DNA of 64,000 bases from positions 1 to 64,000 of the forward strand of contig JAUCBJ010006914.1 in NCBI GenBank assembly GCA_032718475.1, written 5' to 3'. Below, in pieces: positions 1,772 to 50,121 of this stretch (position 1 is its first letter; the number at the start of each line of letters is the position of its first letter). The DNA comes from Nemertoderma westbladi (lineage: Eukaryota; Animalia; Xenacoelomorpha). Both the position numbers and the translations under genes were made by a program. The notes beneath the pieces were generated by a model that worked only from the letters and a program-made list of their open reading frames with translations, was not told the DNA's origin and did no database searches.

Positions 1772-2406
1772 CCTTAATACATTTTTCAAGATAATTACAC
1801 ATTTGATAAACTTAACAAAACTTGCAAATTCTTAAATTAATTTGATAGACTTGGTAGGTATTTTAAAATGTATGTTCTAAGCTTACTATGTTTTGCAAAG
1901 TACTTCTCACATTTTTGAACCGAATTACTTACAAGTATTTTCTAAATTAGTAAGGTATTATGGTCCGGGATACCTACCTATCGAGAATACAGTAGCCGCG
2001 GGGGGGATTATTCGAGAAGGATAAACTTTGATCCCGAGCGACACATACAGACTGCATGACATACTGTAGGCCTTACTGCACATACCATAGGCCATGCTGA
2101 GAGAGATAATGTAGGCGATAGGATAGCGCGAACAACGGGATTAAACCCGGAAGTCGCGGAGTATATACCAGCAGGTAGGCCAGAAGTAGATAGGCCTATA
2201 CCGGTACAAGCACAGCAGTAAGACTACATACAGCATGCAAGGACATAACATATACCCAGGGGAGGGGAGATTTATTGCGGATACGTGTATGCGCCCCAAT
2301 ATATTAACATCAACCCCAGTACCAAACATACCGGTGGGGGGGGGGGGACAGGCCCACATCACAATATCAACAATATACCCCAATAGGAGTAAGAACATCG
2401 AACCCC

Positions 2407-5010
2407 TTGGATGAGAATAGATCGTGTGACACAGAAATATGGAGGGGGCCACTACCCCCTATGATATATCCAAGTCAGAGGAAAGCAGCAGACAGGACGA
2501 ACGGACCGCACCCAACGGGAGAACCTATACAGCACCCATTGAACCCATTGGAAGCGCAAGCGATGGGGATGGCCACGTTAATCGATGCATTAAAGACCAG
2601 GATCGAGTTACCACCCGTGGAACCATTCAAATTCGATGGAAGTAGGCCGGAAGAATACCTACAGTTTCGGCGCATGTATAGTAACGAAATACTAACAAAG
2701 AATTTGACGCAGGCGGAGTGCCTAAAGTATCTGCAAGTATATACAGGGGGCCCAGCATACGACATCGTGAGGCAATACCAGGACATCAAGGGTGGCTTCA
2801 CGACGGCATGGCGGGCGTTAGACAGGGAATACGGACACCCGGCCAAGATCATCCGGCAGACCCTGAGAGGTATAACATCAGGTGGCCTACAAGATAACCC
2901 CATTAGCATAAAGACATTCTCTAACAAAGTCGAAAAGGCGCTAATCGTGCTAAAGACGCTAGACGCGCCATACTAACTCAACGCGTCCAACAACATCACC
3001 ACGATAGCGCAGGCACTACCGATGTGGTTGCGCAACAAGTGGAGGAAAATCGCTTTCTCCACTCGAGATAGGAAGGGTGCGGAACTGGGTTTAGAAGAGA
3101 TGTCAAGCTTCTTAAACTATGAAGCTGAACTTATAACGGACCCAGTCTATAGCGAGGATAGCCTGGGAAAGGGATCAAAGACCGATTACCACAGGCCGAA
3201 ACCAGAGCACAACGCGTCGAACGCATTGCCAAAGCTCAGACAGTCACTGCCGTACTCAGCAACGCAGGGGACTACCAGTCCACAAGTAGCCGGAGATAAG
3301 ACCACATCATGGAGCGGACAGGAGAAAAATAACAACACAAATAAACATAACCCCAGTACACCCAGTAGGCCGAGCCCAAACAATAAGAATAGTAGGAACT
3401 TTGGTACAAATGCAACTGCGATATGCAATGCACTGTATAAGGACGGCTACGACCCAAAGAGCAAATGCCAGCTACATACAAATGCACTTCATCAGACCAT
3501 GAATTGCAGGCACTGGCAAGCGCTACCCAGGGAAGATCAGGTAGAATACGCGACAAGAAATGAGATCTGTTCGCGATGTGTGATGAGTGGACACAGAGCC
3601 AAACAATGCAAAGAGACGCCGATTAAGTTCGGTCAAAGTAAAGGCCAAATGATGGCAACGAGCACCGTAGGAGCGAAGAAGAGAGGAACGGTACTACTTG
3701 GGGTAGTACCAGTGCGAGTGATCGGGGAAGGCAATCGATCAGTGACCACACTGATGCTGGTCGACAGTGGTGCAGCCTTCACCTTAGTTGAGGATTGGGT
3801 GGCCGAAGAGATAGGATTGAGAACGAGGCCAAGTAAAATGGTGGTGACAACCATCTCCAGCAAAGATGAGGTTCTGGAGATGAAGACCGGATGGTGCGTG
3901 ATAGCGATAGCGATAGCACCGGGATGCGACTATGGGGCGACCATTGACCCCATCCAGGTGATAGAGTCGATAAATATTAACGCCAGGCGGCCAACCAACA
4001 TCAACGTCGAACAATATAGATTCCTGGACAGTATCGACTTCTCAATCCCAGAGGTGGACATCAGGAAGGTATCCATCATAGTAGGAATGGACTGCCCGAC
4101 GGCCCACGAGAGAATGCAAATGGTCTTCGGCAAAGACAGGCAGTGTGACCCGGTGGCGATATTAACACCATTCGGGTGGACGCTGAGTGGCCCAATCAGG
4201 AGTAAGATACCATTTAGGATGTCGGAGACATCAGGATGCATGTTCGCGGGAACTATGCGAGAAATGGGAGATGAGGGAGCGGAGGAGCAGCTCAGGAGAC
4301 TGCTCAGGCAGGATTCCGAGGGATTAAAGGAGACCGGGGTTGGAACCTCGGTAGAAGACAAGCAGGCTTTACAAAGTGTAAAGGAATCGATGGCATGCGA
4401 TGAGGGGCGGTATACCATAGGAATGGTATGGAAGCTACCGAAGCTACCGTTACCCGACAACAAAGGGATGGTACTCACGAGGCTTCGTAAGTTAAAGCAG
4501 ACATTAAAACGGAGCCCCGAGAAGAATGAGTACATTCACAAGACAATTAGAAAGTATGTCGAGAAAGGATGGGCCGTGGAATTACCGGTCGACGAACCAA
4601 ACACGGACAGGACCTATTACCTGGCACTCCACGTGGCTCTAGACCCGAAGAAAGGTAAACTGCGGATGGTAGTTGACGCATCGGCCAAGACCAACGGAAA
4701 ATGCCTAAACGATTATCTGCTGGAGGGTCCCAACATCTACAACTCAGGGATCGAGGTCCTACTCAGATTCAGGAATGGTAGACACGCTTTCACCTGCGAC
4801 ATCGAAGGCATGTTCAACAAAGTCCGTGTAACGGAAGAGGATAGCGACAGCCAACGCTTCCTATGGTACGACGGCGATGAGGAACCGTCGACCATACCAA
4901 TGTATAAGATGATAGTACAGAATATGGGAGCCAAGTCGTCTTCGTTTACAACGACTATGGCCGTAAGAGACATGGTAGCAGGGAAGGAAGATAAGTTCAG
5001 TGCCAAAGCC
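2407..5010 (+). pseudogene. A1 gag-pol: BEL gag (DUF1759-like), zinc knuckles, aspartic protease, N-terminal RT
   Basis: PFKFDGSRPEEYLQF...YLQVYTGGPA gag motif, CSRCVMSGHRAKQC knuckle, LMLVDSGA protease, and YYLALHV...KLRMVVDASAK...LNDYLLEGPN...DIEGMF BEL RT. In-frame TAA at 2974-2976 (GAA in A2). Homology to A2 ends at 5010, before the YVDD motif. Confidence 0.9.
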
Positions 5011-5011
5011 G

Positions 5012-5737
5012 ATCGCAGTAATGTATTCTGACAGCGGGACCAACTTTGTGGGGGCGGAGAACGAGATGGCAGAGGCCTTGGATATCTTGGAAGGGGAGGA
5101 AGTCAGGGCAGCCATGCGAAGGTGACAAGTGAAGTGGGAGAGGAGGACGCCGTATGCTCCGCATACCCTAGGATGCGTCGAGAGACTCGTGGGTAGTTCG
5201 AAGCGTCTGATGACGAAGTTGATGAACACCCACATGGTCATGGAGGACGTATTGAGGACGGTACTAGCAAAGTGTGAGGGTGTCATTAATAGCAGACCGC
5301 TATATCCAGAAAATGATGACCCTGAGTCATTAGACATGCTGACGCCCAGTCACTTTCGAATGGAAAGGCCAGCGACAATCGACATGCGGGGTGTAGACCC
5401 AGACGATATACACTCCCGACAGAGTTGGAAAGTCGCTAAGGCGATAAGCGCACACTACTGGAGGAGGTGGGTCGAGGAATATCTGCCCACACTACATAGA
5501 AGAAGTAAGTGGAGGAATACGAATAGAGAGTTAAAGGAGGGTGATCTGGTGATCGTCACGGATGATACCATCATTAACAACCAATGGTGGTTGGCGAGAG
5601 TTGTGGGCACTTACTCCGATGAGGACGGAAGAGTCCGATCGGTAGAAGTGCGAATAGGTGGCAAGATAGGTGCGAAAGACAGGAAGACCTACAGGAGGGC
5701 TGAAGGGAAGTGCTGTCTGCTAGAGGGGGCACCTTGA
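5012..5737 (+). pseudogene. A1 integrase core and BEL C-terminal (DUF5641-like) domain
   Basis: SDSGTNFVGA, GCVERLVGS, INSRPL, LTPSHF, YWRRWVEEYLPTL, GDLVIV...WWLARV...DGRVRSVEV. In-frame TGA at 5123-5125. Confidence 0.9.
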
Positions 5738-5877
5738 GTTAGAGTGGATTTTAGCGGAGTTTAGTCGTCCAAGTTTTGGACTAAGGGGGGTGGGATTGAG
5801 GGCGAGACACCCTTCCCATACAAATAAATAAAAAAAAAAAAATAATAGTGCATAATAGGTGCGCAGTTAGTAGGCAG

Positions 5878-6044
5878 CAGTTAGTTAGTAAGTAGCAAGT
5901 AGTACCGCTAGTTAGATAGTGGGAAATTAGTAGTAAGAGGGTACGTAGTACCGTTAGTAAGTAGCAAGTAGTACCGCTAGTTAGATAGTGGGAAATTAGT
6001 AGTAAGAGGTTACGTAGTACCGTTAGTAAGTAGCAAGTAGTACC
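5878..6044. repeat. 69-bp TAGTA-rich tandem repeat in A1 post-pol region (left part)
   Basis: Unit GTTAGTAAGTAGCAAGTAGTACCGCTAGTTAGATAGTGGGAAATTAGTAGTAAGAGGGTACGTAGTACC starts at 5884, 5953 and 6022, and is interrupted at 6044. Confidence 0.9.
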
Positions 6045-6215
6045 CAATAGATTAGTAACCTCTGCTGCCGAATAACTCTGCGTAATTGGTACTGAACTGT
6101 ACTGCTGTACTGACTACTGCCTTGACAACTGTCAGACTTTGTGGCGCCAAATTATATATTTCTGATTGTGTCGCCTCTCTATTCGAGTGAACGCGTCACT
6201 GCAGCCGGCGTTTTG

Positions 6216-9200
6216 ATGGCAGCTTGTTGCGGCTGCAATGGATGGTCCGGGCGCTGCAAGAAATGTATATGCGTCAGGAATAGCTTGCGGTGCTTATCGT
6301 GTGCCCCAGGAAGAAACGGCAATTGCGAGAACAGCCAGCACCCTTCCTCTCAACCTCTACCGGATCGCCACGAACGACCTTCGTTCTCCCAGACGTCAGT
6401 CTCACAGCCGCTTAACTCTTGCGCAGCTTTGGAAAGTCCAGCGGACGATACATTGATGGATCAGGACGAAACTATACTGGGTGGATCCCCGATCGTCCAG
6501 GATAATCCGCTAGCTGCCAGTGCATCAGCATCATTGAACTCTCCAGTTTGGTCTCCGGGCGCAGCACGAGCGAGGGCCAGTGCCATCATATCTAGGATTC
6601 GGAGCCCCGGTACAGGGTCTGCTTTGGGGTCAGCAGTTAAAGACGTTATACTTCAGACCCCGAACTTTTCAGATCCCCGAGCAGTCCAGTCCGTTCCTTC
6701 AGCAGTCCAGTCTGGTCCCCCTTCAGTCCAGTCGGGTCCCCCTGCAGTCCAGTCGGTGCACCCAGCAGTCCAGTCGGGTCCCCCATCAGTCCAGTTGGGT
6801 CCCCCACCAGTCCAGTTGGGTCCCCCATCAGTCCAGTCGGTGCGCCCAGCAGTCCAGTCGGGTCCCCCATCAGTCCAGTCGGGTCCCCCATATGTCCAGT
6901 CCAGTCGGGTCGCCCAGCAGTCCCAGTCGGGTCCCCCAGCAGATCAGTTGGGTCCCCCATCAGACCAGTCGGGTCCCTCGGGAGTCCAGTCGGGTCCCCC
7001 AGCAGTCCAGTCGGGTCCCCCTTCAGACCAGTCAGGTCCCTCGGGAGTCCAGTCGGGTCCCCCAGCAGTCTAGTCGGGTCCCCCATCAGTCCAGTCGGGT
7101 CCCCCATCAGACCAGTCGGGTCCCTCAGGAGTCCAGTCGGGTCCCCCAGCAGTCCAGTCGGGTCCCCCTTCAGTCCAGTCAGGTCCCCCATCAGACCAGT
7201 CGGGTCCCTCAGGAGTCCAGTCGGGTCCCCCAGCAGTCCAGTCGGGTCCCCCTTCAGACCAGTCGGGTCCCCCTTCAGTCCGGTCGGGTCCCCCAGCAAT
7301 CCAGCCGGGTCCCCCACCAGTCCAGTTGGCACCCTCGGCATCTATCGGTCGACCTCTGCCATCCTCCCTGTCCAGTGTTGTACTCACTTCAACAAGTCGA
7401 GTCGACTCCGCAGTATGGTTCAATGAATCCTTGCCCAGGCACCAAATAATAGAGTCAATCAACACAGTGTACAACAGCATAGTACACTGGCGGCCAAACC
7501 TATTCCTGGTTCCTCAGGGGGCCGTGGGTAGAGAATTGGTGGCAGAGATTTCTCGGTTGTTGGCGCTGGCAATCAGTGAAAATCCCCTACATGAGGTCGC
7601 CCTCACGGCAATGATGATATTGCCAGCTCTCCTCTTACAGAAACCGAGTCGGTCTTCCACCACGGCCACACACCGGCACATTCTCCAACGCCGTCTAGTG
7701 AGCTGGAGGGAAGCAAAATTCGACGAACTCATGGTGGAGGCCAGGGCCATTCAGACACACCTTCCTAAGCGACGACCCCCAGCCTCTCAGGACGTAGCAC
7801 TCCAGAAGGCGTTCACCCGCCACATGCTGACTGGGAATATTTCGGCGGCGACGAGAGTTCTTGGACAGTTACACCGCGGTTCTCCACTGAGTCTGAATGA
7901 CTCATTCACGGACAAAGATGGGAAAACCAAGGTGGTCTGGGATGTTCTGCGAGCGAAACATCCTCCAGCGCAGCCCGCAGACGAGTCGACCCTGCTATCG
8001 CATTTCCCTGAGGCGCCACAGCACCACAGCGTTGTGTTTGAGGCGATCGATGGGAAGCTCATCCTTGGGAGCTTGCTTAGAATGAAGGGAAACGCCGCTG
8101 GTCCATCGGGAGTTGATGTTCAGGGTTGGAAGCACCTCCTTACCCGGTTTCGGAGACAGTCTTCCGAGCTGGGTGAGAGGATCGCAGACTTGGCGAAACA
8201 ACTCGCACAGACCAAGACTTCTCAGGGGTCTCTATCTGCGCTACTGTCTGCCAGACTTATTGCACTGGACAAAAACTCGGGCGTCAGACCCATAGGGATA
8301 GGTGAGGTGTTGCGCCGCGTCATAGGTAAATCTATCACCCATTGTATCCGTCAGGATCTTGAGTCTGTCGGTGGGAACACCCAACTCTGTCTGGGTCAGA
8401 AGGCTGGCATTGAATTCGCCATCCACAGCCTCACGATGGAGTGGGACTCGGACGACTGTGACGGGGTTCTACAGATAGACGCTACAAATGCCTTCAACGT
8501 ACTGAACCGTTCGGCTGCCCTCCACAACATTGGAGTTGTCTGCCCTGCCCTTCTCACTGTAGTCACCAATTGCTACAGCGAACCAGCTCGACTCTTTGTG
8601 GGAGGGGAGACGTTGCTCTCTGAAGAGGGGACCACACAGGGTGACCCCATTGCCATGGCGATGTATGGGTGCTCCATTATGCCACTATTAGCTGAGTTGG
8701 GACGTGCAAGCAAGGCCACACAGCGGTGGTATGCGGATGATGGCAATGCGGCAGGAAAACTCACTGACCTACGGGCCTTCCTAGAGGTTGCTACCACAAG
8801 GGGTCCTCTCTTTGGCTACTTCCCATCCAAGTGTCACATCACAGTGAAACCAGCAATGTTGGAAGAGGCTGAGATTCTTTTCGCCAATACTGGTGTCACC
8901 ATCAACACAACAGGCCATGAGCTACTCGGCGGGGTTGTTGGCACTGAGGAGTATCGCACCACGTTCCTAGAAGAGAAGGCTCAGGAGTTCGCCATGGAAG
9001 TGGATCGTCTCGCAGGGGTGGCAGCAGTGGACCCCCACTGTGCGTACGCGGGCCTCGCGTTTGGCCTTGCCTGTCGGTGGCGGTTCATCACCCGTGTTGT
9101 ATCCACCACGCCAGCCCATCTCACCCTGTTGGAGGAGGCTGTAAATCGATTCCTTTGCCATCTCACCGATCGGCCAGCCATCTCAAAAGAGGAACGCCTG

Positions 9201-10253
9201 TTACTTTCCCTGCCAGTCCGTGACGGGGGTATCGGCATTCCGGTGCCCACTGACCTGTCACATCAGTATACCAGCTCGCTTCGGGTCTGTGAGCCATTCA
9301 TCAGCGCCACACCAGATACAATGGGGCAGGCCCGGGAGAAACAAACAGAGGTGGTGGGCAGGTTGAAGGTAGAGGCGCTGCTCCAGTCGATGGAAAAGAG
9401 AGAGGAAGTGGTGGGAATATTATCTCCTCCCCAGCGGCGGCTCCACGGACTGACCACTGAAAAGGGCGCTTCTATCTGGCTCAACACCAAGCCACTCATC
9501 CTCCAGGACACCCACCTGGACAAGGGTGAATTCAGGGATGCCCTGTGCCTCCGATATGGGTGGATGCCAAAGTCTCTACCGTCTCGTTGTGTCTGTGGGG
9601 AGCGATTTTCTCCTACCCACGTTCTGTCGTGCCCCACTGGAGGATTTCCTTCCATCAGGCACAACGAGATCCGGGACTTTGTCGCTGATGCTCTGACGGA
9701 GGTGTCACATAATGTGGCTGTGGAGCCAGTCCTCCAACCGCTAACGGGCGAGCAGTTTGAACACCGCAGCACTTCAACGGACCAGCTGGCGAGATTGGAC
9801 GTCTCAGTGAGCGGCTTCTGGGGCAATCGGTTCCAGAAGACGTTCCTAGACGTCTCAGTCTTCAATCCACTGGCAGAAACTAATGCTGCCATGTCCCTAC
9901 CGTCAGCCCACCTTTACCATGAAGCGCGGAAGAACCTAAAGTATCAGGAACGAGTGAGGGAGGTGGAACACGCCACCTTCACGCCTCTGATATTTTCCGC
10001 GTTTGGTGGTATGGCGCCTTCAGCCATACATCTGGTGAAGCGGTTGGCGCACCGCCTGGCGGAGAAGAGAGAAACGCGGTATGCGGAGTGCATCACATGG
10101 GTTCGGCGAAAGTTGAACTTCGCGTTGTTGCGGTCGGCCCTCATGTGTCTCCGTGGACACCGGTCGGCTGCTAGACGACCCATTCGCTGCACAAATTCAG
10201 TTGCAGACATAGCCATTGTGCATGCGAATGCGGATGTTGCCCCACCGCCGTAG
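6216..10253 (+). pseudogene. CRE-like polyprotein: N-terminal Cys-rich (CXC-like) domain, SVQSGPP repeats, RT, CCHC finger, PD-(D/E)xK endonuclease; one nonsense codon
   Basis: ORFs 6141-7073 and 7326-10253 share a frame, separated only by TAG at 7071-7073 (CAG in sister repeats). Motifs: RLIALDKNSGVRPIGIGEVLRR, GTTQGDPIAM, WYADD, CVCGERFSPTHVLSC, RHNEIRD, ARLDV...FLDVSVFNP...EARKNLKY. Confidence 0.88.
6682..7330 (+). repeat. 21-bp coding minisatellite (CAGTCCAGTCGGGTCCCCCNN), ~30 units, encoding (S/A)VQSGPP
   Basis: Direct tandem repetition is visible in both the DNA and the translation. Confidence 0.95.
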
Positions 10254-10412
10254 ACCACAACGAGTGAAGACAAGACCACGAAGAAACTGATGTTAATGAT
10301 TTTTTTTTGTGTGTAACTCTATATATAATTTTTGATCTCGTAATAATTTTCAACTATGTGAATTTGTTATATTTATTAGCTATAGATATAGTTTAACTAA
10401 ATATATTATACT

Positions 10413-10720
10413 AAGTAGTACCGCTAGTCAGATAGTGGGAAATTAGTAGTAAGAGGGTACGTAGTACCGTTAGTAAGTAGCAAGTAGTGCCGCTAGTTAG
10501 ATAGTGGGAAATTAGTAGTAAGAGGGTACGTAGTACCGTTAGTAAGAGAGTATGTAGTACCGCTAGTCAGATAGTGGGAAATTAGTAGCAAGAGGGTACG
10601 TAGTACCGTTAGTTAGTTAGAGAGAGTTAGAGGTTAGTAAGAGGGTACGTAGTACCGTTAGTTAGTTAGTTAGAGAGAGTTAGAGGTTAGTAAGAGGGTA
10701 CGTAGTACCGGCTAGTAAGA
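10413..10720. repeat. Continuation of the A1 TAGTA-rich tandem repeat after the CRE insertion
   Basis: The same unit resumes at AAGTAGTACCGCTAGTCAGATAGTGGG, then degenerates into shorter variants. Confidence 0.88.
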
Positions 10721-11210
10721 GGAAGAGGTAGAAGGGTATGTATAATATAGACATTAGTTAGTAGTTAGTAGCGAGAGGGGGGCATATGAGTACAGCTGGA
10801 TAAATCGTGTAGGCCATGCGACGCATACTGTTGTACTGCACAAGCCCACAGAGTAGGCCAGAATGTGGATTATGGAATAGAGTAATCCATTGGCAATAAT
10901 AAGTAGTAGCACAGTAGTAGGATTGAATTAAATTAAAATATTAAAAATAGAAAAGGGCTAAGACAATCAACAAATTATGGTAACAGTAGAAAGTAAATTC
11001 TGGAACATAATTAAAGTAACTGACAAAATTGTAATTTAAAGTACAATTTGGTAGCTTCAGAAATTAGGTAGTGTAAAATAGGCTATATAACTTAGTAATT
11101 CAGAGAGAGACAGGCCATCGAACTGAAATAAACCATCTTAACCTATCACTCATCCTATTGCGCCTTGGCAAGGCACCACCCAACGGGTGAGCGATCGGGC
11201 AGAGTTTGAG

Positions 11211-13733
11211 ATGGCAGGCAAACTTGTGCGAAAGAGAAAGGCGGAGCTAGGAGGAAAGGAGATACTGGTGGATTTCACCAAGAGGCATCCGGAAGAGAAG
11301 ACGAGGGGATACTACAAGCGGTTAGAGAGAGGTCACGCAGAGCGAGCGCTACATGACCATTTCAGGGAGGTGCACGAACAGCGGCTGGTCGGGACCTACG
11401 GGACGCCGTCGCTGGACAACGCGATCTTCGAGCATTTCCACTACGTGGTGAAAGGAGATGAGGCGAAGTTCGGGATTCTGAAGTACGCGAGAGAGCCACC
11501 GAGGAAAGATTGGAAGAGGTTCGTAGAGTCCGTCAGCAGGGGAGGATATATGACCCTAGACGACGAAGGAACCGTGGAAGACGAGGAGGGTTCGAAGAGA
11601 GGATCGGCGGGGTCGGCCAGAACCATACTCCTACATTTGGCCGCGCCAAATGGGGATATATTCCTATTCGATCTAGGAACGTATGGAAAGAAGGATGGGC
11701 CGAAGTTGAACCGGTTGCCGAAGGCGGTGCAAACCCTAGTGAGAGAGAAGTCGACGACGAAAGTGGGATCGGCGATTCGCGTCGATGCGGAGAGAATCAT
11801 CAGTCCGGACACCCCCAACCTGCTGGATATGCAGACGGTCTATATGGCTATGACAGCACCAGACGGGTTGGGACTAGTAGAGAACACAGGACATTGCGGG
11901 GTGGTGGCAATGGGCCAGTTAATGGGGCTCGTGTGTCACAAACCGATGGACTGGAGTAAGTTCAGAGGGGAGTACGGAGCGGACTTGGCGAACTCGCTGA
12001 AGTGGGGAGCGAGGCCAGGGAGACAAGAGGTGTATCAATTCTGGAGAGGAGCGATAAAGGTATATCAGAAGCGATATATCCTACAGGAGGACTGGATAAT
12101 GATGGGTTTGCTTAACCTATTCATGACCGTGGTTATCGAGAGGGAACCAACGGCATTCCTATTATCGGGATCACCCCTAAGCTACTGAAGAGCCTTTAAG
12201 ACGGCTTTCGAGGGTCTGGTAGACCACCTGGGGCTGAAGGGCGAGTTGGTGTACTACAACAGCCGACATCTGGTAGACGGGGAGGTAGATACGTCGTATC
12301 AGAGGTGGGAGCAGCTAGAGACGGATAGACGAGAGGCGATGCAATTGGAAGAAGTCGCTAGACATGAGAGGAGAGAAGCAGAGGAAAGGGAGGAGGAAGC
12401 TAGGGCACAGAGCTACGGCTTCGAGGAACAGGCGGGCTTAGACGAACGTCGTTGGACCTTATCAGGGAGTTCAGGGGAGTCTCTAGGGCGAGAACTAGGA
12501 TGGATGGTGGGATCACCGAAACAGTCGACGTCAGGATTGCAGACGACGCCCATACCAGCGGGTGCCGAGGGCGACCAGCCGCTAAGGAGGCTAGGGGAGC
12601 TAGAAGGATGGAAAGCTACGGGCGAGAGCCAAGGCGGGAAGGGACATAGTGGGTCCACCAGGATACCAGGGTTGGAGCCACTGCCAGAAGAGGACGAGGA
12701 CGACGACGAGTTCGGAGAGATGCCGCCCATCGGGAGGATCGGCCACTCGGACACGGATTGGGTTGGCGGGAGGGTGGTGACGGCCAGTGGGGCAAGGGCC
12801 TTCTGGGATAGACCCGGCAAACGGGCCTGGGTGCATGAGGAGCCGGCGATGGATTTCGCGGGGAGCACCATCAGGTTGGGCGAGCAACCGGGGACGGCAC
12901 CATGGGTGGTATTCGGGGAGACGATGCCCGGGAGGGGCAAGGAGATCGATGTAGACAGGGACGCTAACGTCCGGAAGTTCGCTTACCAGCGACTCCACAG
13001 ACCGTGGAGATCGCTTGGGACGAAAGACGACGTGGGGCGGGAGACATTGGTGCTCGGCTGTGACTACTGTGGGAGACAGACCCATCAGGAAAGGAGCTGT
13101 TTGTACCAGTTCCAGAAAGGGACTAGTTGTCTCTACTGCCGCGAGTCGAGCCACAGGATGGGGGCGTGTCCACGGTTGCACAACCAATGTTCGAAGTGTA
13201 ACTTTCGGGGACATTACGGACGCCAGTGCGACTGGATGGACGACGAAGAGAAGTTTAGGGTCTTCGAGGAGTGGGCCGACGTCGGGGCCATGACTCGGCA
13301 ACGCATGAAGGCCCAGGAGTTCCGGTGGGGCTTCTTTAACATCAATCAGGAGGCTCACATGGAGATTATCAAATGGAGGCTTCCGTTTACCTACCAGGAA
13401 GTGGCGACGGCGGTGTCATATGCCGGAGTGATAAATACGCAGAGGTATTTGGATAGGTGGACGCCACAGAACAGAGGAGAGTTCAGGGACTTCTTGGCGG
13501 AGCATGTGCCTCGGGCAATGAAAATGATCCTATGGGACGCCACCAGGGGGAGACAGCAGGGCCACTCGGAGGGGCCACCCGCGAAGCGATACCGGGAACT
13601 AATAACACTGGCACCCAAGGAGTTGACGACCGGGATCAGTAAGGAGGTGGCGGCGAGAGTCCGAAGCCAGAAGGCAGACAAGACCAAAGGAGCGGCAGTG
13701 ACCAGGAAACAACCAAGGGAGGAGGACGACTGA
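11211..13733 (+). pseudogene. Family A accessory ORF3: DEDDy 3'-5' exonuclease (RNase D/WRN/MUT-7-like) plus acidic linker plus three CCHC zinc knuckles; one in-frame stop
   Basis: ORFs 11187-12188 and 12246-13733 are in frame with one TGA at 12186-12188. First ATG is at 11211. ExoI MTLDDEG, LLHLA..DIFLFDL, LP..VQTLV...TKVGSAIRVD (ExoII), LLDMQ, W...YQKRYILQED (ExoIII-like). Knuckles: CDYCGRQTHQERSC, CLYCRESSHRMGAC, CSKCNFRGHYGRQC. Confidence 0.78.
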
Positions 13734-14414
13734 AGGAAAGACTTGAGGTGGTTCCCAAAGGCAGGTGGAACGAACTAAGACTTCGGTGTAACATACCTGG
13801 AAGGCACCACGTGAGACGTGCGAACTCCTAAGTACAAATTCAAGTAATTTAAATAATTGAAAAGTGCAATTAGTAGGTACGTACGTAGTAATCATTATTA
13901 GTTTAGCAAAATATAATCGAAGTAAGTACTATAGTCATTCAACCTTTTTCCAATTAGCTACTGGACTGGGGGACGACTGACTATGACGAACGGGACGCTG
14001 GACGACATCACACTTCTTGAGTGCGACGGCACAGGAGGGGGGTGAAACTCGTTGGGAATGAGTGGGAGAGATAGGGGTTGAGTTGTAGTGCGGAGAGGGT
14101 GCAATTCAAGTGTGGGGGGGGAGGGGAATAAGAGGCTGAGTGAGGGACAGGGAAGTCCGAAAGTTAGAGTGGAAGTGAGGAGAAGTAGAGGAGAGTCAGG
14201 GTGAGAACAGAGTAGAGTTAGTGGTGATAGTGTTGGGGAAACAAAAGTCGTGTGAGAGGAGCATATGATCGGCCAGACACGGGACGCCAGGTAAACAGGG
14301 TAGCGATATCACCCATAGGGGGCGGTCTGGAAAGCCGGCTCCGAGGAAAATAGTTCCACCCCACACTCGATACTAGGTCAAGATCCAGCGGAATTGTAGC
14401 GCACTAGAAGTGGA

Positions 14415-14450
14415 TGCTATCTTCTCACCGAGAAGATAGCATGGGGGGAG
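14415..14450 (+). promoter_or_regulatory. Hairpin plus polypurine tract of A1
   Basis: ATGCTATCTTCT-CACCG-AGAAGATAGCAT is a perfect 12-bp stem, followed by GGGGGGAG directly abutting the LTR TG at 14451. Confidence 0.75.
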
Positions 14451-15031
14451 TGTTAGCGTATTCAATTCCACTAGCCAGGCCCAAACAGAGTTGGTTTTAA
14501 GCAATATTGGGAGCACGAGGTTGGTTACCAATCAACCTCGTGTCACCCCAATAAGCGGGGTCAATAGGCCCCAAGGGAACACACACAGCAGGGGTCAGAG
14601 GTTATACCTCCGGGAGGGAGAGAGAGACAGCAGCGGGGGGGGGGGGGGGGAGCACACCGAGAGAGATGGGAGGGTGACAAGTGAGTTATTAGCCAATGGG
14701 GGGAAGGCATCGGCTGAGTAGTGTAATGCGGCCGACCGGTGCAATATATTACCAGTAACCGTGTTATTCATTCACTCATTAGCTAGTCAGTTCAGTTAGG
14801 GTAGGATGGCAACTTTTATTACCGTTCAGCCGTTTATTCATTCATGTTATCTGTATACTGCAATTACTAACTGCATTCGCTATAACTGTGCTTATACTTT
14901 ATACCACTTTATATTATATACATACCGAGCGATTAACAACAGGAACTCTAACAAACTCTTTTCACACGGCGGGACGCATAAATAAACCTAACCACCGGAT
15001 AAACCGGGATCCTCTATCTGATCCCATCACA
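14451..15031 (+). repeat. A1 3' LTR
   Basis: Starts TGTTAGCG after the PPT and ends ...GATCCCATCACA. Homologous to 50122-50638. Contains CCAAT (14693), a TATA-like ATATATTA (~14744) and AATAAA (~14981). Confidence 0.8.
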
Positions 15032-16829
15032 AGATAGTTCATTTATATTATTAAACAACTCATTGTATTTAACGGTAAATTTACCTCGATAACTCCGTTG
15101 TTGCCCTAGTAAGGTATCCAAGTCGACATTAGTATTTAATTGTGCAGAAACACGGCCACCACGAGCCTGTGAGCGTAACGAGGTAGAGCTCGAACTTTGT
15201 GACCCATAATGTGTTTTATTTGTATGCGACATTGTACAGTTGTATGATTGTAGGCCCCCTACCGTACTTCTGGCATCTAACACGACCCAGGTGTGTAGGT
15301 GTAGTGTATTATTATAAATACCGGTATTGAAATATTATTAACTACTGCCTACCACAGCGGTGGACAGCTTAGTCTACAATACAGCAATATGTTGATATAC
15401 GAAAAATAGGCCTAGGCCTGTAGGCTATAGTACGTACTGAGGTATATATATACAAATATAAGTATATGGGCCTACCAGGTAGGTACCGGACCGGTCCTAC
15501 TGAGTACAGAGAAATTAAAACAGTTAATTAAATGCACAAATGTAGGCTATGCTGCTACGGCTATAGGCCTCTACAACCTAATATTGCTAGATTTATGCAC
15601 TGCGGTTTTATCTGATTATCACTAACTGGCAGTCAGTCAGTTAGTCGTAGGCTAGGTTAGGCCCTCCTAGTCTGCCAGTCTGCAGTCTATGGTCTTGGGA
15701 AAAAAAACAGCAAAAAAATTGACTAGGCCTACCGCACTACAGGTACCGGGTATGGTATTTATTCTGCCTAGGCCTACCTGGATTGCTGTCCGTCAGTCAG
15801 TCAGTCTGTCAGTACAGCAGTAGGCAGGCATACGTGTCCAGGTGTCTGCATGCCAAGTAAATCTGTAAATACGTAAATTTCAGAATTTTTACATGTACGT
15901 ACAGACATATGACTAATAATTTGATATCGCTCCTTTACTGTCCTGGATGCCGGGCGGCTAATGCCACTATATAGGAAATTTGAGCTCGCTAAATGTAGTT
16001 TACGTATGGGAGTACGTAATCTGGTAATGGTATAATAAAGGGTTGACGACCCTTTCATGCATCCGAGTATACACAGTAAGGTTGACAGATAGCTGGATAG
16101 TTGAACAGTTGAATGGCAAGTGCTGAAGTGGGTTACAAAGGACTGCATAGATCAGTGGATAAGGTAAATGTGAAATGAAGTGCTACCAAATACAGCAAAT
16201 AAGGACGGGTACGGGTAAGGGATAAGGCAGATAGGTGGAGGATGGTGAAAGTAGGCTGGCGGGGTTCACACTCCTACCCAATGCATAGAAAATACATAAA
16301 AACTAAACAATGATATATTCTTTATCCTGTAATATATATATGTCTAAACAGCTACACCCGGAGAGCTACCGGTAACTGCATATCCTAGCACCTAGTCCTG
16401 CTGTCCTGAATACTGGAATAACTATACAACTAAATGTAAAGGAGCGATGCGAGCTCATGGGGAGACACGCATTTGATAAAGGTTACTGAAGTACGTCTGT
16501 ACTGGAGTAGCCTAATTTGCATATAATAATGGAAGGGGCATCAATGCGTCTGCATTGATGCGTAAATCACAGTATGCAGTATATCCGCTATTAATCAAAA
16601 GAGTACAGACTGCACAATGACAGGAAGACACCGTGACAATGAGAAATCCGCAATCAGCGATACTGGAGATAACTTCAGTACCAGTGACATATGATTTATG
16701 AATCATAAACTACTGTATCTATCCAAAAGGATGGTTGTACTATAAGCTGTAAAGGTCGGCTGAGTGACTATAAAATGTAAATTGAAATGCAATCAGGAGA
16801 TGGCCCACGTAATCCATGACATAGTCTGG

Positions 16830-17650
16830 GTACGCTAAATAACAATATTGAAAATAGTCCCGGTGAAATTGATCAAAATAATGCAAGTAATAACGTAACA
16901 AATCAACAAGGTGAGGCCAGTGGCGGTATAATTAATACAAATGTCGGGGAAGCAGGCAATTCGCCTAGAGAGGGCCTACAAGGCCACGTGGTTGTGCAGG
17001 GAGGAACGCGGGCGAATAAACCTAGGGAGAACAGAACTAACGTGTCGAGTGGAGGAGAACATGGGCATGGGGGCGAAGTGAGAAGTGACAGGTGGGGGGG
17101 CTACGGGCACCCCACCACAACCAATCAATGACGAGAGGGGGGGGGGGGGGGGCAGAAAACGCTCCACAGATGTCGACGGGAAATATGCTCGGTGATTCAA
17201 GTGAACCGGAGCTCCCGATGACGGAGAAAATGGGGGTGGGGCAACAGAAGCCCCACGAGCCCCGGAAGACAATGCGCACGGTGAGTTAAGTGAACCGTGG
17301 CACCCGACGACGGAGCATAATAGGAGGGCAGCGAATATCCGCGAGGCCGTACAACCGGGTAGAGGGAGGGACATTGGTGCCGTAAGCGGTCAAACGAGAA
17401 AACGAGAAACCGATCGAGGAAGAAGACAGAGGAGGGGATCGGAGGGAAACTTCCCGTCAGAACGTAGCTGCCGATCGAGGATATGGTAGTCGCGGGGAGG
17501 ACTTCTCGGAACATTCAAGAAGATTAAACTTCGATCCAAAAGGACACAGGCAGACTGCAGAACATACTTGGTTAATACCCCACTTACAGGTACCGGAAGA
17601 CAGCCCCAAGACTGGTGTGACCGTACGGGCGGGGGGGGGGGGGGGTAATA
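16830..17650 (+). mobile_element. Degenerate, rearranged family A gag fragments
   Basis: GGGGGGGCTACGGGCACCCCACCACAAC matches 52846-52873. TTAATACCCCACTTACAGG...TGGTGTGACCGTAC matches 52044-52098, but in swapped order. Confidence 0.6.
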
Positions 17651-19172
17651 ATATTTTATTTTATTCTTTATTGCAGGCATTGCCCATAGTAAAATTGCTA
17701 AATAGTATACAGTAAATAGCACAGAAGTATAAATATAGTGATACACAGATATACATATATATTATATACCAGTATTGAATAACTATTTATTTAAGAATAA
17801 AATTAATATAGATATGCACTATTATCGAAAGTTTCGCGGATTCTAGAACAACAGTAGGTGACGTTATAAACTGAATTAACGACAGTGTTTATTGAACAAT
17901 AAATCCTATTAAAGAGACTATTTACACTACGAAATCTAATATGTACGAAACACGGTAAATTATGTTCTCTAAAAAATTGTGACATGCTGTTAGAGACCTG
18001 TGCACTAGAAAGTCGGGGAATCTTAAATAGTATTCGAGCTGCGTTGTTGTAGGCAACTCTAACGCGGTTATATACAAAAGATGAGTAATTCCGTTTCGCC
18101 CACAGAGCATTGCAATACAGAGGTGTGAGGAACGCACGGAATAAACAACATTTGACCGATACAGAACAGGCACTAAATTTACGAATTAATAAATTAGCAC
18201 GTGCATAAATGCTCCTCATAGTTTTCTTGATATCATAATCATCATCGCGAGTGCGATGTATTATGTATCCCAGATATTTAAACATATCAGATTCAATTAT
18301 TCATTTACCATTTAGAAAGACTGGAGCCATACCAACAATTCCAGTACGCTTAGAAGCAAAATACATAAACTTTTGTCTTTTTTAGATTGAAGAGGATGCC
18401 ATGTTTCGAGGCAAAAACTTCGCAGATATCAAGCAAGCTTTGCAAACCAATAACGGAATTAGAAAGCAGATTTAGGTCATCAGCATACATCAAATGATTG
18501 ACCCTCTTGCCATCCAATGCAGAACCGAAACCGGCCTTGGATAGCAAGACGGACAAATCATCCATATAAACATTGAATAAATATGCAGAGAGCACTCCGC
18601 CCTGTTTTACACCATTAGACACTGTAAAAGGAGTAGAAAATGATGACCCCCATTTAACACGTATTGATTGACTAGAGTACCAATATGCTATCATACGCAC
18701 AATGTATAGTGGCACATTACGCTTTATCAGCTTCTGGTACAATGTACTGTGCACATTGCACAATTCGATCAAAAGCCTTAGAGGCATCCATAAAGCAAAC
18801 ATAAACTGATGAATCGTTGTACAACTAGTAGTCTATTATATCTAATAGAGTGTACCTACACAATTCAGTTCCACTACAACGTTTGTACGCGAATTGATTG
18901 TCGGTCGTTATCAAATATGATTCTATTCTAGAAAGAGCTACATATTCAAACACTTTACTAATCATTGTCGCTATAGCAATACCCCTATAATTTGACTTGT
19001 CGTCAATGGGACCATTCTTATCCTTAATGATTGGAATAATAAAACAGTCAAGGATGGCATTGGGCATGTAACCATGAGTAAGCATAGATGTGAATAATGA
19101 CGCCAATAGATTATTCAGGTTGTCACTTTTACTGTGAAATAAGTGTTGTGGGGCAATTCCATCTGGCCCCAT
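17650..19172 (-). mobile_element. APE-type LINE 3' portion (RT ORF2 remnant, CR1/L2- or RTE-X-like; clade not resolved)
   Basis: GPDGI...IIPIIKDK...NYRGIA, NGVKQGGVLSAYLFNVYMDDL, HLMYADD, FKYLG. Frameshifted. AATAAA and an (AATAA)n-like tail on the minus strand near 17650-17675. Confidence 0.85.
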
Positions 19173-20262: not shown

Positions 20263-21849
20263 TCTTCTGATTGCAGTGTAGGCAATAAATACAGTTTAAT
20301 ATTGTTCTGGTAAGAACAATAACAGTTGTAAAGTACCGGTCGACCGGTAACCAGTAGGCCTGACTGCCTAACCACCCGAACCGGTACTTACAGCAGTACA
20401 GGTACAGCAGTATTATTCGATTTTGATAATTATATACCAGTAGGTCTTAATATTTAATCGGGGACGCCTGGTTTTTATTGGGATTTTACTTAGGCCTATT
20501 TCTGTCAGTTTTATTTATTTGAAAGTTAATATTGAACAGAAGGCGTGTAAGCCTGCTCAGATTGTACAGATAATTTGTAGGCTGGATTGTTGTCTGGCTG
20601 TTGTTAAGTCTGAAGAGATTGCAGTGTGTGTAGAGTGTATGTCCGATAAAGTACTAGTTAGGAACGTAGGGGCTTCCAGAGCTGTAAGGTAAATCCCCCC
20701 CCCCCCCCCCCCCCCGAAAGAATAAGTTGTACTACTCGGTTAGAACGCATACTAACTAACCATTTCGGAGTCTGCATATACTGTAGTTTATTTAGGCTTG
20801 ATAGTAGTCTGCCAGCATTTGGTTTGTATTTTGTTTGTGTAGTCTGTACGGGTAGCGTAATATTTATTATTCAGAGTTTATGCGATTATTCGCAACATTC
20901 ACAAACCCCAAGTTTATTCCTACAGTAATTGTGCTTGTTATACATACCTAACGGTATGTATAACAAGCACAATTAAGCGCAGTTAAATTAACCCCGGTAC
21001 TACATCAGGGCTGTTTGGCGTAGGTAAAGACTAGAGATTTTATGCTTTGGTCACTCTGGCAGATACCGTGGTTCTTTTAGCTGTACAAGTATTTTTTAAC
21101 TGCTGGTTATTTGTTGTATAAGTACTTGTACCTAATTTAGGGTTTAGTGTACAGTGCTTTCCGAAGGTAATTAGCGTGTAAGCAGTATATTTGTGTTGTA
21201 AAGTGGTTAATAGGCACGTTGGCTCTGGTAGGCCGCGGTAATTAACTTCTAGGTAGGAACACTCCGTGATACATAACGTAGTACTTATAGTGCTATGGCT
21301 ATAAGTCATCAGACGGTGGTATTTTTCCTATCTGGACAACGCAATATATTTACTACTGCTTTATTATTTTCAAATACCGTATTATCCTGTCCGTTTGTAA
21401 TAACCAGATTTTCTAACCCTTTGTTAGGCTGGTTTGTAGACTTCTTGTAAAATTACCCTAAAAATTCGTACGTGTAATTTTTGTGTTTATTATTAGAGAT
21501 TGTAATCTCACCCCGCAATTGTACATAATTTGTAGTAATAAGTAACTTAGGCAAGTAGAATTATTTGTTTTAGTGTCCAACAAGTAGCACTCCACTGAAA
21601 GCCTACAGCTTCTGTGTAGTGACTCCTTCCCAGAAATAATAAAATTTATTTCAAATATTGTAAAAAAACCCATTAAACGGGTATATATATTATAAATCAA
21701 CTCAAACCGATTTATAAAATAGTAGGCCTGTCATACAACAATTAGGTCTTAATATCAGTTGGACTACTGCTTAAATAATGGTAATAAAGTAAAGTAAAGT
21801 AACCAAGTAACCCCTTAAATTCAGAAATTCAATTATTCTAAAATAATTG

Positions 21850-22105
21850 ACATACCGGTATTTACAATAGGCTTATTATATTTATTTCTATAAATTTAAG
21901 CTGAAATTATATACCGGTATTCTGTAATTAATTCTAGTCTATAATTATACTTATATATACATTATAAGTGTAAGCTGTATACCGGTATTCACGATAGGCT
22001 TATTATATATTTCTATATATTTGTGCTGAAATTATATACCGGTATTCTGTGACAAATCTAGTCTGTAATAATACTTATATATACTATAAGTGTATACCGG
22101 TATTC
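21850..22105. repeat. Degenerate tandem repeats built around the palindrome ATACCGGTAT in the family B 5' leader
   Basis: TACCGGTAT at ~21853, 21912, 21980, 22037 and 22095. Equivalent arrays at 46195-46447 (B2) and 59640-60010 (B3, with extra units). Confidence 0.75.
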
Positions 22106-22242
22106 TAATATATTGTGTATATATATCACGTTACACTGAGTAACGATATCGGTAATTAATTACTAGGCTAACAGTTGATACTGAATTACTAGACTTGCTT
22201 TAACAGTAATATAGCAGTAGGCATTCAACTGTACAAACAAAC

Positions 22243-25200
22243 ATGTCTGACACAAAGCAAAACCTGTCAGACAGTCTCCTAGATACAAGCATCTGTGACC
22301 CAGACAGGAGTGTGGAACGTGTGAGACTGAAGTTCAACTCACCTCCTACTGTGAGAAAGATCATCCCTCCAGTAGTGGTATCAGACCCTAGATAGTCCAA
22401 CACCGTAGGTCTATCATAGGCACTCGGGCTCAAGTCAAGCAGGACCAAGAAGCAGCTGTTAAACAGCAGCAACACTCGAGCCGAGAACTTATTTCTCAGT
22501 GGCCCGACAGCTCCAGTAGTTCGGATACTGTAGAGCTGACACCCGAGCGCGGAGCAAAGATGGCAGATGCAGTTTATTCGGATCCCCTTCTCATCCTTCC
22601 TGCAGCCGTACTCACTAGGGTATTGATTGCGGTGGAGGAACACCAAATTGATTGGGCGAGAAGTAAGCGATCGACCAAGGATAGTTATGCAGGATACACA
22701 AGGGAGGAACTGAAGTCTATTGTCGAGTCGCAATGGAACTTCCCCGGACCCGGACTCCCGTTTGACTTATCGGAAGCTGCCTGGGAAGACATACACAGGA
22801 TGGGAGTGACGAAAGACACTAGTGATCCAGCTGTGTGGAAGAGGTCGGCAGCAGGATATGTACAGGGATTCTTCAGCTCTTTGGAGCGATTAGAAGAACA
22901 ACTGTTTCGACAACCCCAAGGACCTCAAGAGTAGGGAGAGCTGCTTTATCAAGTTCGAGAAAGAATTCTAAGGATCAGACTAATCCTATCGGCCTTTGAG
23001 GAAGCTTCGAAAAGAAGACAAGACACGTCGTTGCAAGTTGCCGTAAAGACTTGGTTCCAGCGGGTGAGTCTCAAGGTTCAAGGAACGGCCCAGTGGAAAT
23101 TTCAGCTGGCTGAGCGCTCAACCCACAGAGAATCAACAGACGCTACCTTTTCTCAAGTGGAAAGCGAAGCGATAGCGGAGAAACCGCAGCAGAGGGACGC
23201 TATTGACATCTATCTGTCAGACTATCAACGATTCCTAGGTGACAAAGAGTTGAGGAGACGGCTGTCTGGACTTCGCCCTAATAGTGACGGAGCCAAGCTT
23301 GTGTTGGACGCAATAGATGCGGAAATGTTAGCTGCGAACCAAGCTAAATTTGATTAAAGCAGCCGCATCGCTAGGGTCCAAGAAGAACAAGTAAAGAAAA
23401 AACGTATAGAAGACAGAAAGACAGCAGCAGCAGCGGCAATGGCAGCGGCAGAAGCGGAAAGAAAGGTGGCAGAGGCAGTGGCAGAGGCAAAAGCGGCAGC
23501 TGCAGCAGTAGAAGCGGAAAGAAAAGCAGCAGCGGCAGAGGCAAAAGTGGCAGCGGCAGAGGCAAAAGCGGCAGCTGCAGCAGTAGAAGCGGAAAGAAAA
23601 GCGGCAGCGGCAGAAGCGGAAAGGAAGATAGCAGGGGCAGAAGCAGAACGAAGAGCATCTGAAGAGACCACCCAACTAGAGTTGGAAAATCTGCAAGAGA
23701 AGCAAGACTACATAGATAAACAGAGAACAGCTACTCAGTGGCAGCTGATAATTCGATCCACCCCCAAGCAACATGGCTTTACATCATCGGATGAAGGCGA
23801 TACAACAGATCCTGAAGGCGGAGGAAATAGATCTCGTCTCAGCAGGCGTAGAAGAATGCCCCACCGTCAGAAATTGCCTGATTTGCCCCCAGCTGTGAGA
23901 AGGCAACTAGCTAGCACAGACTTAGGTAGTACAGAACCCACAGACCAATTATTGTAGAAAGTCTCCCTACTATAGTAGATGAACCTGAAATAATTAGGCC
24001 TGTTCTCGAAGCCACCCCTTCGGTGATAGAGACACCTGTACTCCCAGAACCTACCTCTAAATTCCCTTTGCACAGCACTAAACTACCTGTGCCCAGCAGA
24101 ACCGCCCCTGAGACAGTTCCTGTCCTGGACTCCAAGCGAAATATCAACGATTTGTCGCCCGTGGTCCCTCGCCTGCCCGCTACTATGTTGGCGGCTCCCG
24201 CTTCGGCGGTCGAGTGGGTGGATGAGGGGCGGCGGGGGATGAATCTCCTGCTCGGGCAGATGCAGGAGACTGTTCATCAGTTTAAGGGAACTGTAAGGGA
24301 AAGTAGGTTAGAGTTGCAAGAAGTGCAGCAGAGTATCGCGTTAGAACGCGATAAATTAGTAAATACACAAAAGGGTATACCACCACCCCCTGTAACAATG
24401 TGTCAACCTGTTAGGTCTGAAGTATTTCATGCGCAAGGTGTGGAGCCTACACGCATCTATACTGCTAGTGAAGTGGAAACTCCTATAGTAAACCCTATTA
24501 AGGGTAATTCTAAACCTGTTGACAATGATATTCCATAGACCATAGACCCCATAGACCTCCATAGACCTGATCATAATCCGAGAAATTTATATACCGATAA
24601 CTCGATATTAAATAACACGATGGCCCAAGAAAGTTTTACGCGTCAAATGGCTAGAACCGAAGCCCGTCAAGCGGTAAAGGTGGGAGAGATCGTCAAGTTC
24701 AATGGAGATGAGATGAAATGGTTACCTTTTAATGAATATTACAAAGATAACATACAGAACTCTGTGCTATCTAACGGAGAGAAACTTAGATTCCTCATCG
24801 AGTGCTTGGAAGGATCTCCCAAGTTAATGGCGTTAAAGTTTATTGGACATCCAGATGGATTAAGACAAGTTTGGGATACACTGAACATCAGGTATGGTAA
24901 TAGGTAATAGCTAGGTATTTATATGCGAAATTAATGGCGCCCCGAAAGTTTCTTAGCAGCGGGATTATAGAGTTTTCCAACGAGATTCAGGAGATCTGTA
25001 GACAACTAGATTGGTTAGGTAAGTCTCATGAATACTAGAATTCTATGGTTGTAGGAGCCTTAGCATCTACTTTGCCCAAGGGCGGAGTAGGTACACGCTG
25101 GGACAAGAAAGTGTTATATATGATGGAACAACAACGAAGAGATCCTACCATGGCTGATCTCATGTCATTCTTAGATGGAGAGGTAAAATTACAGCTCCTA

Positions 25201-27265: not shown

Positions 27266-27789
27266 CAGCGTCTGGAGTGGGTGTGTGACTATATTATTTT
27301 ATATAATATGTTCTTATTATTTTATATTTATGTATGTATTATTATGTAATTTTATTCTAATCGTTTTCTTTAATTTTATTTAGTAGAATGTTATTTTAGC
27401 GATTATTTAGTAGATTAGTGCCATATATATATTCGCGTTTATTACTTAATTACTTATATATTATATATTTAGTGCGACGGCGAGAAATAATTCTTTTTCT
27501 CTTTATATTTTTTCTCTATTATAAATACGTGACTACAGTAAGATGAAATATCCGTACTTATTAAAGTACAATAAAGCTCCTACTATATTCAAGTATTATT
27601 GGTAAGTAGAGTATTAGGAATGCAAAATTCAGATCCTCGTGTCTCGGCTAAACCAAGCTCTGGGTAGACCTTGGAAACGACTTACCTCTTCTCACTGACA
27701 TTGCTTCTTGCGATATTGCTCTCATACAGTATATTAAATAATACATATAGTAGCGTGATGTCCCTTTAACAGTAGCGTAAAACGCAAAA

Positions 27790-28180
27790 TAAATCTGTTA
27801 AACCCTTTGACCATCTGTAATTCTAGTCGATTAAGATATTGCGGCACCCACCAATATACTTGAAAGACAAAATTCTAGAATCAGTGGTTAATGTCCCCAG
27901 ACAAGTTCTGGAATAAATTGGTGCCCATCTTAAATATTAACTATTAATATTTGTAAAATCTGTCAAATAAATACAATAGAGTAACTATTTACAAGTTAAC
28001 TCTAGAAAATCTAAAAATTAAAATCTGTAAAATTTAGATCCTTTAAAATTCTAGTCAATTAAGATATCGTAGCACTTACCGATACTCTTAAAAGGACAAA
28101 TTTCCTAGAATCAAGGATCCCAGTCCCCAGATATGTTCTGGAATAAAATTGTGTCTATTTTAATATTAAATAATAAAATT
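27790..28180. repeat. Diverged tandem duplication (~230-bp period) in the family B post-pol spacer
   Basis: AATTCTAGTCRATTAAGATAT...CTAGAATCA...GTCCCCAGA...GTTCTGGAATAAA occurs at ~27819 and ~28047. Also present in B2 (~36920-37330). Confidence 0.7.
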
Positions 28181-30453: not shown

Positions 30454-30531
30454 CTGTTTAGAGTATTTTTATATTTTAGAAACTGTGATTTTTTATATTT
30501 TATAGAATTAAATCCCATTTTCTGGGAGTGG

Positions 30532-34528: not shown

Positions 34529-34606
34529 CTGCTCCCAGAAAATGGGATTTAATTCTATAAAATATAAAAAATCACAGTTTCTAAAATATAAAAATATTCT
34601 AAACAG

Positions 34607-49958: not shown

Positions 49959-50121
49959 TTACTGACTTCCGAATCCATGATCCCAGGTAACAGAAGTCAT
50001 CCACATGCTCAAGCATACCATCTTTTGAGTTTATGCTCATCCGATCAAAGTTAACTGTCAACATTTTGGTCTTTCTTGTTAGCTTATCCAATTCCGCTAA
50101 CCTACCCCATAAAGTGAGCCG

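Follow-up and report, generated by a model that had tools for sequence, protein, structure and literature searches.

The Juno and Vesta retrotransposon lineages are Ty3/gypsy-like. DEDDy-like ORF3s with the motif DEED, whose activity was not shown, were described in the Juno, Vesta and Athena/Terminon elements of bdelloid rotifers (Rodriguez, Kenefick and Arkhipova 2017, PMC5408684), a report that is repeated in the available text of two reviews (PMC6431247, PMC5718144). The available portion of the 2017 paper reports no knuckles for the rotifer ORF3s and describes variation as mostly neutral in the env and GDSL ORF3s that were sequenced (PMC5408684). Joined to an exonuclease, zinc knuckles are known from the trypanosome RNase D, TbRND, whose CCHC fingers bind RNA and raise cleavage according to the accessible part of its description (PMC7797062; PDB 7c42, 7c45). 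As to BEL/Pao elements, only gag, pol and env are listed in the ICTV profile of the Belpaoviridae (PMC8742986), and the survey of de la Chaux and Wagner (2011), in its available text, names env alone as a third gene and contains the word "exonuclease" 0 times (PMC3118150).

The locus described here lies in a window of 64,000 nucleotides from Nemertoderma westbladi (the whole stretch that was analysed), a piece of eukaryotic, repeat-rich DNA with nested retroelements. It is a BEL/Pao-type element with a third reading frame, ORF3. Like the ORF3s of Juno and Vesta, as far as the available text of PMC5408684 describes them, this frame places an RNase D-type exonuclease in the env position behind pol, has no transmembrane segment and is open to the same candidate roles. 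Whereas Juno and Vesta are low-copy and carry the motif DEED, the carrier here is BEL/Pao and high-copy, and its ORF3 has a three-knuckle module, is under clear purifying selection and reads DEDE in the window copy and DEDE or DEDD in the family. With TbRND it shares an N-terminal exonuclease followed by C-terminal CCHC knuckles, a family profile that matches both domains, and a matching fold; TbRND, in the part of PMC7797062 available, is cellular, with four fingers and a 28-residue linker, whereas ORF3 is retrotransposon-borne, with three knuckles, a linker of ~300 residues and a helical extension. EXD2, the WRN exonuclease, Nibbler/MUT-7, EXD1, Egalitarian and Rrp6, all PF01612 relatives, have the same fold and the same order of Exo I-III motifs; unlike ORF3 these are host genes, they are 9-18% identical to it in structural alignments, and its knuckle module did not match them. 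The element resembles the Belpaoviridae in its Gag DUF1759, protease-RT-integrase order, DUF5641, polypurine tract (PPT) and TG...CA LTRs of ~0.6 kb, and departs from them in that the summed parts seen suggest, as an estimate, a length above the 10-kb range given in the available text of PMC8742986 and PMC3118150.

The initial annotation had named both bdelloid rotifer elements and nematode Cer1 as precedents for a transposon-borne DEDDy frame. The rotifer precedent stands (PMC5408684), whereas that of Cer1 was not found in the papers checked, the available text of the rotifer paper containing "Cer1" 0 times and that of the Cer1 CERV paper containing "exonuclease" 0 times. The same annotation considered both the BEL/Pao setting and the triple-knuckle fusion unusual; for exonuclease plus CCHC there is a structurally solved precedent in trypanosome RNase D (PMC7797062, accessible text). 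A search of freely accessible full texts gave no report of a BEL/Pao exonuclease among the papers listed. Older papers on C. elegans Cer elements may mention an exonuclease domain. Exonuclease ORF3s and exonuclease-plus-knuckle proteins were each known before, and the BEL/Pao carrier appears to be new, a priority that is not certain given the scope of that search and the possible mention in the Cer-element papers.

A BEL/Pao element with a third reading frame

The features of copy A1, the carrier of ORF3, are as follows.

2308..5028, plus strand: Gag (DUF1759), protease and first part of the reverse transcriptase (RT) of copy A1 (Pfam DUF1759, E 4e-10; Asp_protease_2, E 4.5e-5)
5126..5737, plus strand: C-terminal part of the integrase of A1, the end of pol (Pfam DUF5641, E 3.7e-24)
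5828..6044, plus strand: 69-bp tandem array, left part, within the pol-ORF3 spacer (95% identical to 10413-10561)
6045..10412, plus strand: non-LTR retrotransposon, a later insert in the spacer, outside the BEL/Pao element (RVT_1 match in a 1059-aa frame)
10413..11210, plus strand: non-coding spacer, continued, including the right-hand part of the 69-bp array (pyrimidine-rich tract, AG at 11170-11171)
11211..13733, plus strand: ORF3, 840 codons in the window copy (ATG at 11211; stops at 12186-12188, TGA, codon 326, and at 13731-13733)
11505..12143, plus strand: DEDDy-like 3'-5' exonuclease domain, about residues 99-311 (profile, fold, motif columns, ESM Atlas)
12294..13050, plus strand: predicted long charged helix (residues 362-403) and low-confidence linker (407-614) (AlphaFold model; unconserved in the alignment)
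13059..13403, plus strand: three CCHC knuckles, then a conserved helical extension (with F-E-x-x-A-x-x-G-x-x-T, G-F-F and Y), together the most strongly conserved region in the family
14414..14450, plus strand: 13-bp hairpin, then the polypurine tract GGGGGGAG (14443-14450), ~0.7 kb after ORF3
14451..15031, plus strand: 3' LTR, 581 bp, TG...CA, with homology over its full length to the A2 5' LTR (50077-50638)

Copy A1 is a damaged one: its gag-pol is 5'-truncated, has a stop at 2974-2976 and a deletion after ~5037, and the copy is without its 5' end and most of the RT/RNase H/integrase region, the RNase H being deleted. Its relative A2 (53398-56450), which keeps a 5' LTR, is 88.6% identical to the gag-pol of A1 at the DNA level. 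DUF1759, protease, RT part and DUF5641 follow one another in A1 in the order typical of BEL/Pao, and the RT of A1 aligns with that of a second BEL/Pao family of the window, which has Peptidase_A17. Because of these Pfam domain families, together with the Peptidase_A17 of the second family, A1 and A2 can be assigned to BEL/Pao, an assignment that we regard as established as far as domain content and order can establish it. The linkage of ORF3 to a BEL/Pao element, as originally proposed, is borne out by Pfam domains, PPT, LTR and spacer. The second family is present in at least three copies (20330-30654; 34397-47919, minus strand; 57750-62400); a tblastn search (E 0.01) gave no ORF3 match in it, no frame of more than 172 codons lies behind its integrase, and the ~3 kb after the integrase hold short broken frames only. 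Further on from A1, at 16800-17700, is a decayed gag-like remnant akin to family A (68-87% to 52044-53493).

The non-LTR retrotransposon is flanked by a 10-bp target-site duplication (6035-6044 / 10413-10422), behind which the 69-bp array resumes; it is therefore a later insertion, and the native spacer measures ~1.1 kb. The element looks young, with an N-terminal Cys-rich stretch, an RT and a C-terminal restriction-like endonuclease region, a 21-bp tandem array encoding SGPP repeats, and a single stop (7071-7073) in ~1375 codons. It resembles HERO-type elements. ORF3 does lie between integrase and PPT/3' LTR, the order given by the initial annotation, but is not adjacent to the integrase, the 4.4-kb insert standing between them. 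Directly 5' of the PPT, the hairpin at 14414-14442 has a perfect 13-bp stem. Both LTRs have a terminal hairpin just before CA (15006-15025 and 50613-50633) with the same stem, GGGATC...GATCCC, and unlike loops.

ORF3 had been described as a frame of ~840 codons with a single internal stop. Frame and internal stop are both present, whereas the stop taken as its end is likewise a peculiarity of the window copy and the true family protein is longer. All covering contigs from public DNA of the same organism depart from the window at base one of the internal stop (37, 34, 23 and 1 in four runs) and likewise at base one of the terminal stop, 13731 (28, 19, 17 and 3). Both stops are therefore private decay of the window copy, and the family protein extends further at its end. 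The copy in the window is dead.

An identity as env was considered and ruled out, as the initial annotation had done: the N-terminus is basic, the best 19-residue hydropathy mean of ORF3 is 1.32 and falls within the last helix of the nuclease, and there is neither a hydrophobic segment fit for an anchor nor an env-like signal.

Exonuclease domain, linker and zinc module

Single-sequence searches of Pfam, NCBIfam, PHROGs and the PDB (phmmer) did not detect the exonuclease domain, word-index protein searches found no relative of ORF3, and a single-sequence structure model reached a pLDDT of 33 and gave no match in a fold search. In the ESM Atlas, the neighbour of the protein is a Werner-like exonuclease cluster (score 0.94) with PF01612 on 38% of its members. 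A HMMER search of 1.84 billion representative proteins returned 72 relatives at E <= 0.001, the best-matching stretch of all falling on the knuckle region. Half of them (36/72) have at least 470 residues, and 32 of these 36 score at least 20 bits on a profile of the exonuclease domain, a count in which only 3 proteins are independent, 29 having helped to build the profile; none of the 36 short ones scores. The long relatives share a layout of exonuclease, disordered linker and three-knuckle zinc module in 32 of 36 cases. Contigs of 9-19 kb carry the long relatives P0005, P0006, P0010, P0017, P0025, P0047, P0059 and P0069. A profile of 32 aligned proteins matched EXD2 (E 1.1e-13), trypanosome RNase D over both domains (3.2e-10), WRN (3.4e-5) and Egalitarian (1.1e-4), and, through the knuckles, Lin28 and nucleocapsids. 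PF01612 itself came just under its cut-off in 2 of 38 relatives, and the window protein is below the Pfam threshold. When the family profile was run against bacterial PF01612 loci, 21/40 scored above 10 bits on one strand and 0/40 on the other. Judged by sequence comparison, the ORF3 protein belongs to a deep protein family that has no Pfam name.

In an AlphaFold model made with the family alignment, nuclease core and zinc module are confidently predicted, whereas the linker is not. With this model Foldseek gave 38 matches at E <= 0.001; the named ones among the matches listed all have the 3'-5' exonuclease fold (Egalitarian, Nibbler, EXD2, TbRND, Exd1, Rrp6, NrnC, RNase D and the apicoplast polymerase), and one further listed match is an unnamed nuclease. 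These matches and the profile match to EXD2 point to a predicted DnaQ-like alpha/beta fold. Family profile and predicted model thus agree with the exonuclease fold anticipated from the motifs. Chance spacing of the motifs was ruled out, a profile built without the ORF3 protein giving it 70 bits as against at most 5.2 for 500 shuffles. In a library of viral folds the best matches were giant-virus and phage exonucleases, with no retrotransposon protein among the matches listed. Locus scans of metagenome contigs and viral contigs found neither ORF3 nor relatives.

The motifs lie where they had been placed by eye: D-D-E at 11559-11567, KVG..D ending at 11784-11786 and YILQED at 12075-12092. Only the reading of the last of them has to be corrected, the fourth acid of Exo III having been taken as the Asp of YILQED, whereas the residue at Y+4 is Glu293, one before that Asp. 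The catalytic set of the window protein is accordingly D117, E119, D192, Y289 and E293: the DxE of Exo I and the Asp of Exo II are present, and Exo III reads YxxxE instead of YxxxD, for which reason the domain is classed as DEDDy-like and not as a strict DEDDy member. Across 30 aligned domains the D117 column is kept in 21, E119 in 24, D192 in 23 and Y289 in 24, and the last-acid column holds Asp in 16 and Glu in 8. The complete set (D-E-D-Y/F-D/E) occurs in 19 of the 30 at a median pairwise identity of 18%. Residues of the set are lost in 9 of 28 full-domain members, the remaining 2 of the 30 being cut short at the start. In a tree of the 30 domains (a quick one with long branches and without host outgroups), the window protein groups with P0006 and P0010, all three YxxxE, with a support of 96. 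Glu at 293 looks like the state of this family in the host, because the tallies of changes among copies leave no unlisted change that would give Asp at codon 293. Glu as the fourth acid may mean weakened or altered catalysis.

The three knuckles of the form CX2CX4HX4C reported at the outset are confirmed at 13059-13100, 13128-13169 and 13188-13229. Twelve columns are invariant in 32/32 rows of the alignment, all within the knuckles, and the pLDDT of the model is ~90 over residues 641-700. No Pfam family named the helical extension that follows. The zinc module is doubled in the relatives P0002 and P0032, and stands without a recognisable exonuclease in P0040, P0060 and P0064; the module therefore moves on its own.

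Linkage to the element and selection among copies

Public DNA runs from the same organism (four runs, at most three samples) gave 8991, 5713, 6216 and 101 contigs on 10700-15300. Those running on into unlike sequence make up 0-1% in the three deep runs and 28% in the shallow fourth, and no common end points are listed. In other copies, ORF3 is connected with the spacer on its 5' side and the 3' region by contigs or deletion joints; a join of integrase and ORF3 is seen in the window copy alone, none of the contigs spanning it elsewhere. The purine fraction is 0.60-0.64 in gag-pol, both spacer halves, ORF3 and the 3' region, and 0.485 in the non-LTR insert. Behind ORF3 follow a PPT and an LTR matching that of A2, with likeness from TG to CA (71% over 384 columns, 77% over 70). 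This match is looser than that of gag-pol, which calls for caution on the linkage. Contig depth drops to the level of unique sequence just past the 3' LTR of A1. The ORF3-bearing family is plainly abundant in the host, ORF3 bins having a summed depth of ~9,000-60,000 in the deepest run as against 30 in the flank (a depth, not a copy number).

Deleted forms without the exonuclease (joint 11228-12366) have a depth of 420-720 as against 20-34 in the unique flank, and internally deleted forms are probably amplified non-autonomous derivatives. Forms deleted at 11228-12366 (exonuclease) or 13225-13796 (sequence 3' of the knuckles) were seen repeatedly, in three of the runs, at a depth of 375-720.

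Selection was assessed on contigs of three runs (two studies) matching 11500-12120, among the matches listed (40 of 46), the units being contigs and not counted copies. Thirty-nine sites were classed singly, 38 from the 11500-12120 listing (two double rows collapsed) and one from the 10700-15300 set. Variation among copies affects 31 of these sites, with 26 silent changes and 5 replacements where 29% silent would be expected (P 4e-10, among the matches listed). The 8 sites private to the window copy are all (8/8) replacements, as expected because the other copies are constrained. For comparison, the gag-pol of A1 and A2 differ by 121 silent and 43 replacement changes. All 12 listed indels (of 82) fall outside ORF3, which spans 55% of the stretch compared (P 7e-5, some rows being the same event). 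Other copies of the family thus carry ORF3, as the initial annotation would have it, and keep it under purifying selection.

Possible functions

Nibbler, EXD1 and TbRND act on small RNAs, and EXD2, the best sequence match, acts on DNA as well as RNA. We propose, and give an even chance to, the view that ORF3 is an accessory gene combining an RNase D/EXD2 fold with three knuckles, likely a 3'-5' RNA exonuclease that blunts host silencing. Its protein would be made from a separate, probably spliced, message: within 10423-14450 the most pyrimidine-rich 40-nt windows begin at 11127-11142, and a run of pyrimidines that closes with AG, 40 bases 5' of the ATG, in a purine-rich element, is suggestive of splicing, with the AG at 11170-11171 as candidate acceptor. 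Positions 11127-11182 are taken to be non-coding because of 1-bp indels among copies there. By analogy with trypanosome RNase D, the knuckles would take hold of single-stranded RNA and direct its 3' end into a two-metal active site. The least certain steps are the last ones, namely that the targets might be host small RNAs or host-added 3' tails on element RNA, and that the gene might raise transposition without being essential to it. Anti-silencing is favoured because gag and pol are described as all that BEL/Pao elements need (PMC8742986), because nuclease-less derivatives spread, and because several of the closest folds act on small RNAs. Against the RNA-exonuclease reading count, at the level of sequence, the match to EXD2, Glu as fourth acid and the incomplete catalytic sets of 9/28 members. 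More broadly, ORF3-type proteins might form an old family of retrotransposon suppressors, in which a knuckle-guided exonuclease destroys or mis-trims host piRNAs/siRNAs in dozens of deeply diverged element lineages; this wider proposition we hold to be doubtful.

Alternatively, the nuclease may serve the replication of the element by trimming, in the particle, primer RNA, the end of genomic RNA or extra bases at cDNA ends, with the knuckles acting like a second nucleocapsid. The knuckles do score against retroviral nucleocapsids and Gag, the fold is common to WRN and polymerase proofreading domains, and the constraint on ORF3 is as strong as that on gag-pol. A primer site of the tRNA type, for tRNA-Arg or tRNA-Gly in BEL/Pao elements, is, moreover, not apparent, as TGG does not occur among the 60 bases that follow the A2 5' LTR (50639-50700), nor any 8-base complement to the A2 LTR in these same bases, although this observation comes from one decayed copy. 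We nonetheless consider such a role rather unlikely, BEL/Pao elements being described as replicating with gag and pol alone (PMC8742986) and the second BEL/Pao family of the window being without such an ORF.

On a further reading, which we consider unlikely, the main task of the protein is to bind RNA as an adaptor or decoy, its active site being weak or dispensable; like Egalitarian or EXD1, it would localise or shield the RNA of the element. Foldseek places complexes of Egalitarian with BicD and RNA (one of them with I-factor RNA) and Exd1 at the top of the fold matches, the zinc module is conserved far above the nuclease, and to the 9/28 full-domain members short of catalytic residues are added 4/36 long relatives from which the domain is absent. 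The Foldseek ranks are close, however, with large rmsd values; a complete catalytic set in 19/30 domains at so low an identity is hard to explain without catalysis; and the changes listed at codons 119 and 192 are silent, with none listed at codon 117.

Finally, it is highly improbable that ORF3 belongs to a different mobile element, or to a host retrogene, inserted into this BEL/Pao copy. In favour of such an origin are the nested insertions of the window, the lack of any other copy read through from integrase to ORF3 and an A2 LTR match looser than that of gag-pol. Against it, contigs and deletion joints elsewhere link ORF3 to spacer and 3' region, no ends and no target duplication were seen around it, and its strand has the purine bias of the element.

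With ORF3 in a BEL/Pao element, the exonuclease-ORF3 arrangement is seen in another LTR superfamily, the second one. Among copies, the ORF3 nuclease domain is shown here to be under selection, the rotifer ORF3s having been described without evidence of selection. The finding bears on the question of whether animal retrotransposons encode enzymes against small-RNA silencing, and brings to light a protein family with no Pfam name and at least 32 further members, among which catalytically complete and incomplete ones provide natural intact proteins for assay. The suppressor family, if true, would mean that an animal LTR retrotransposon carries a gene for enzymatic counter-defence.
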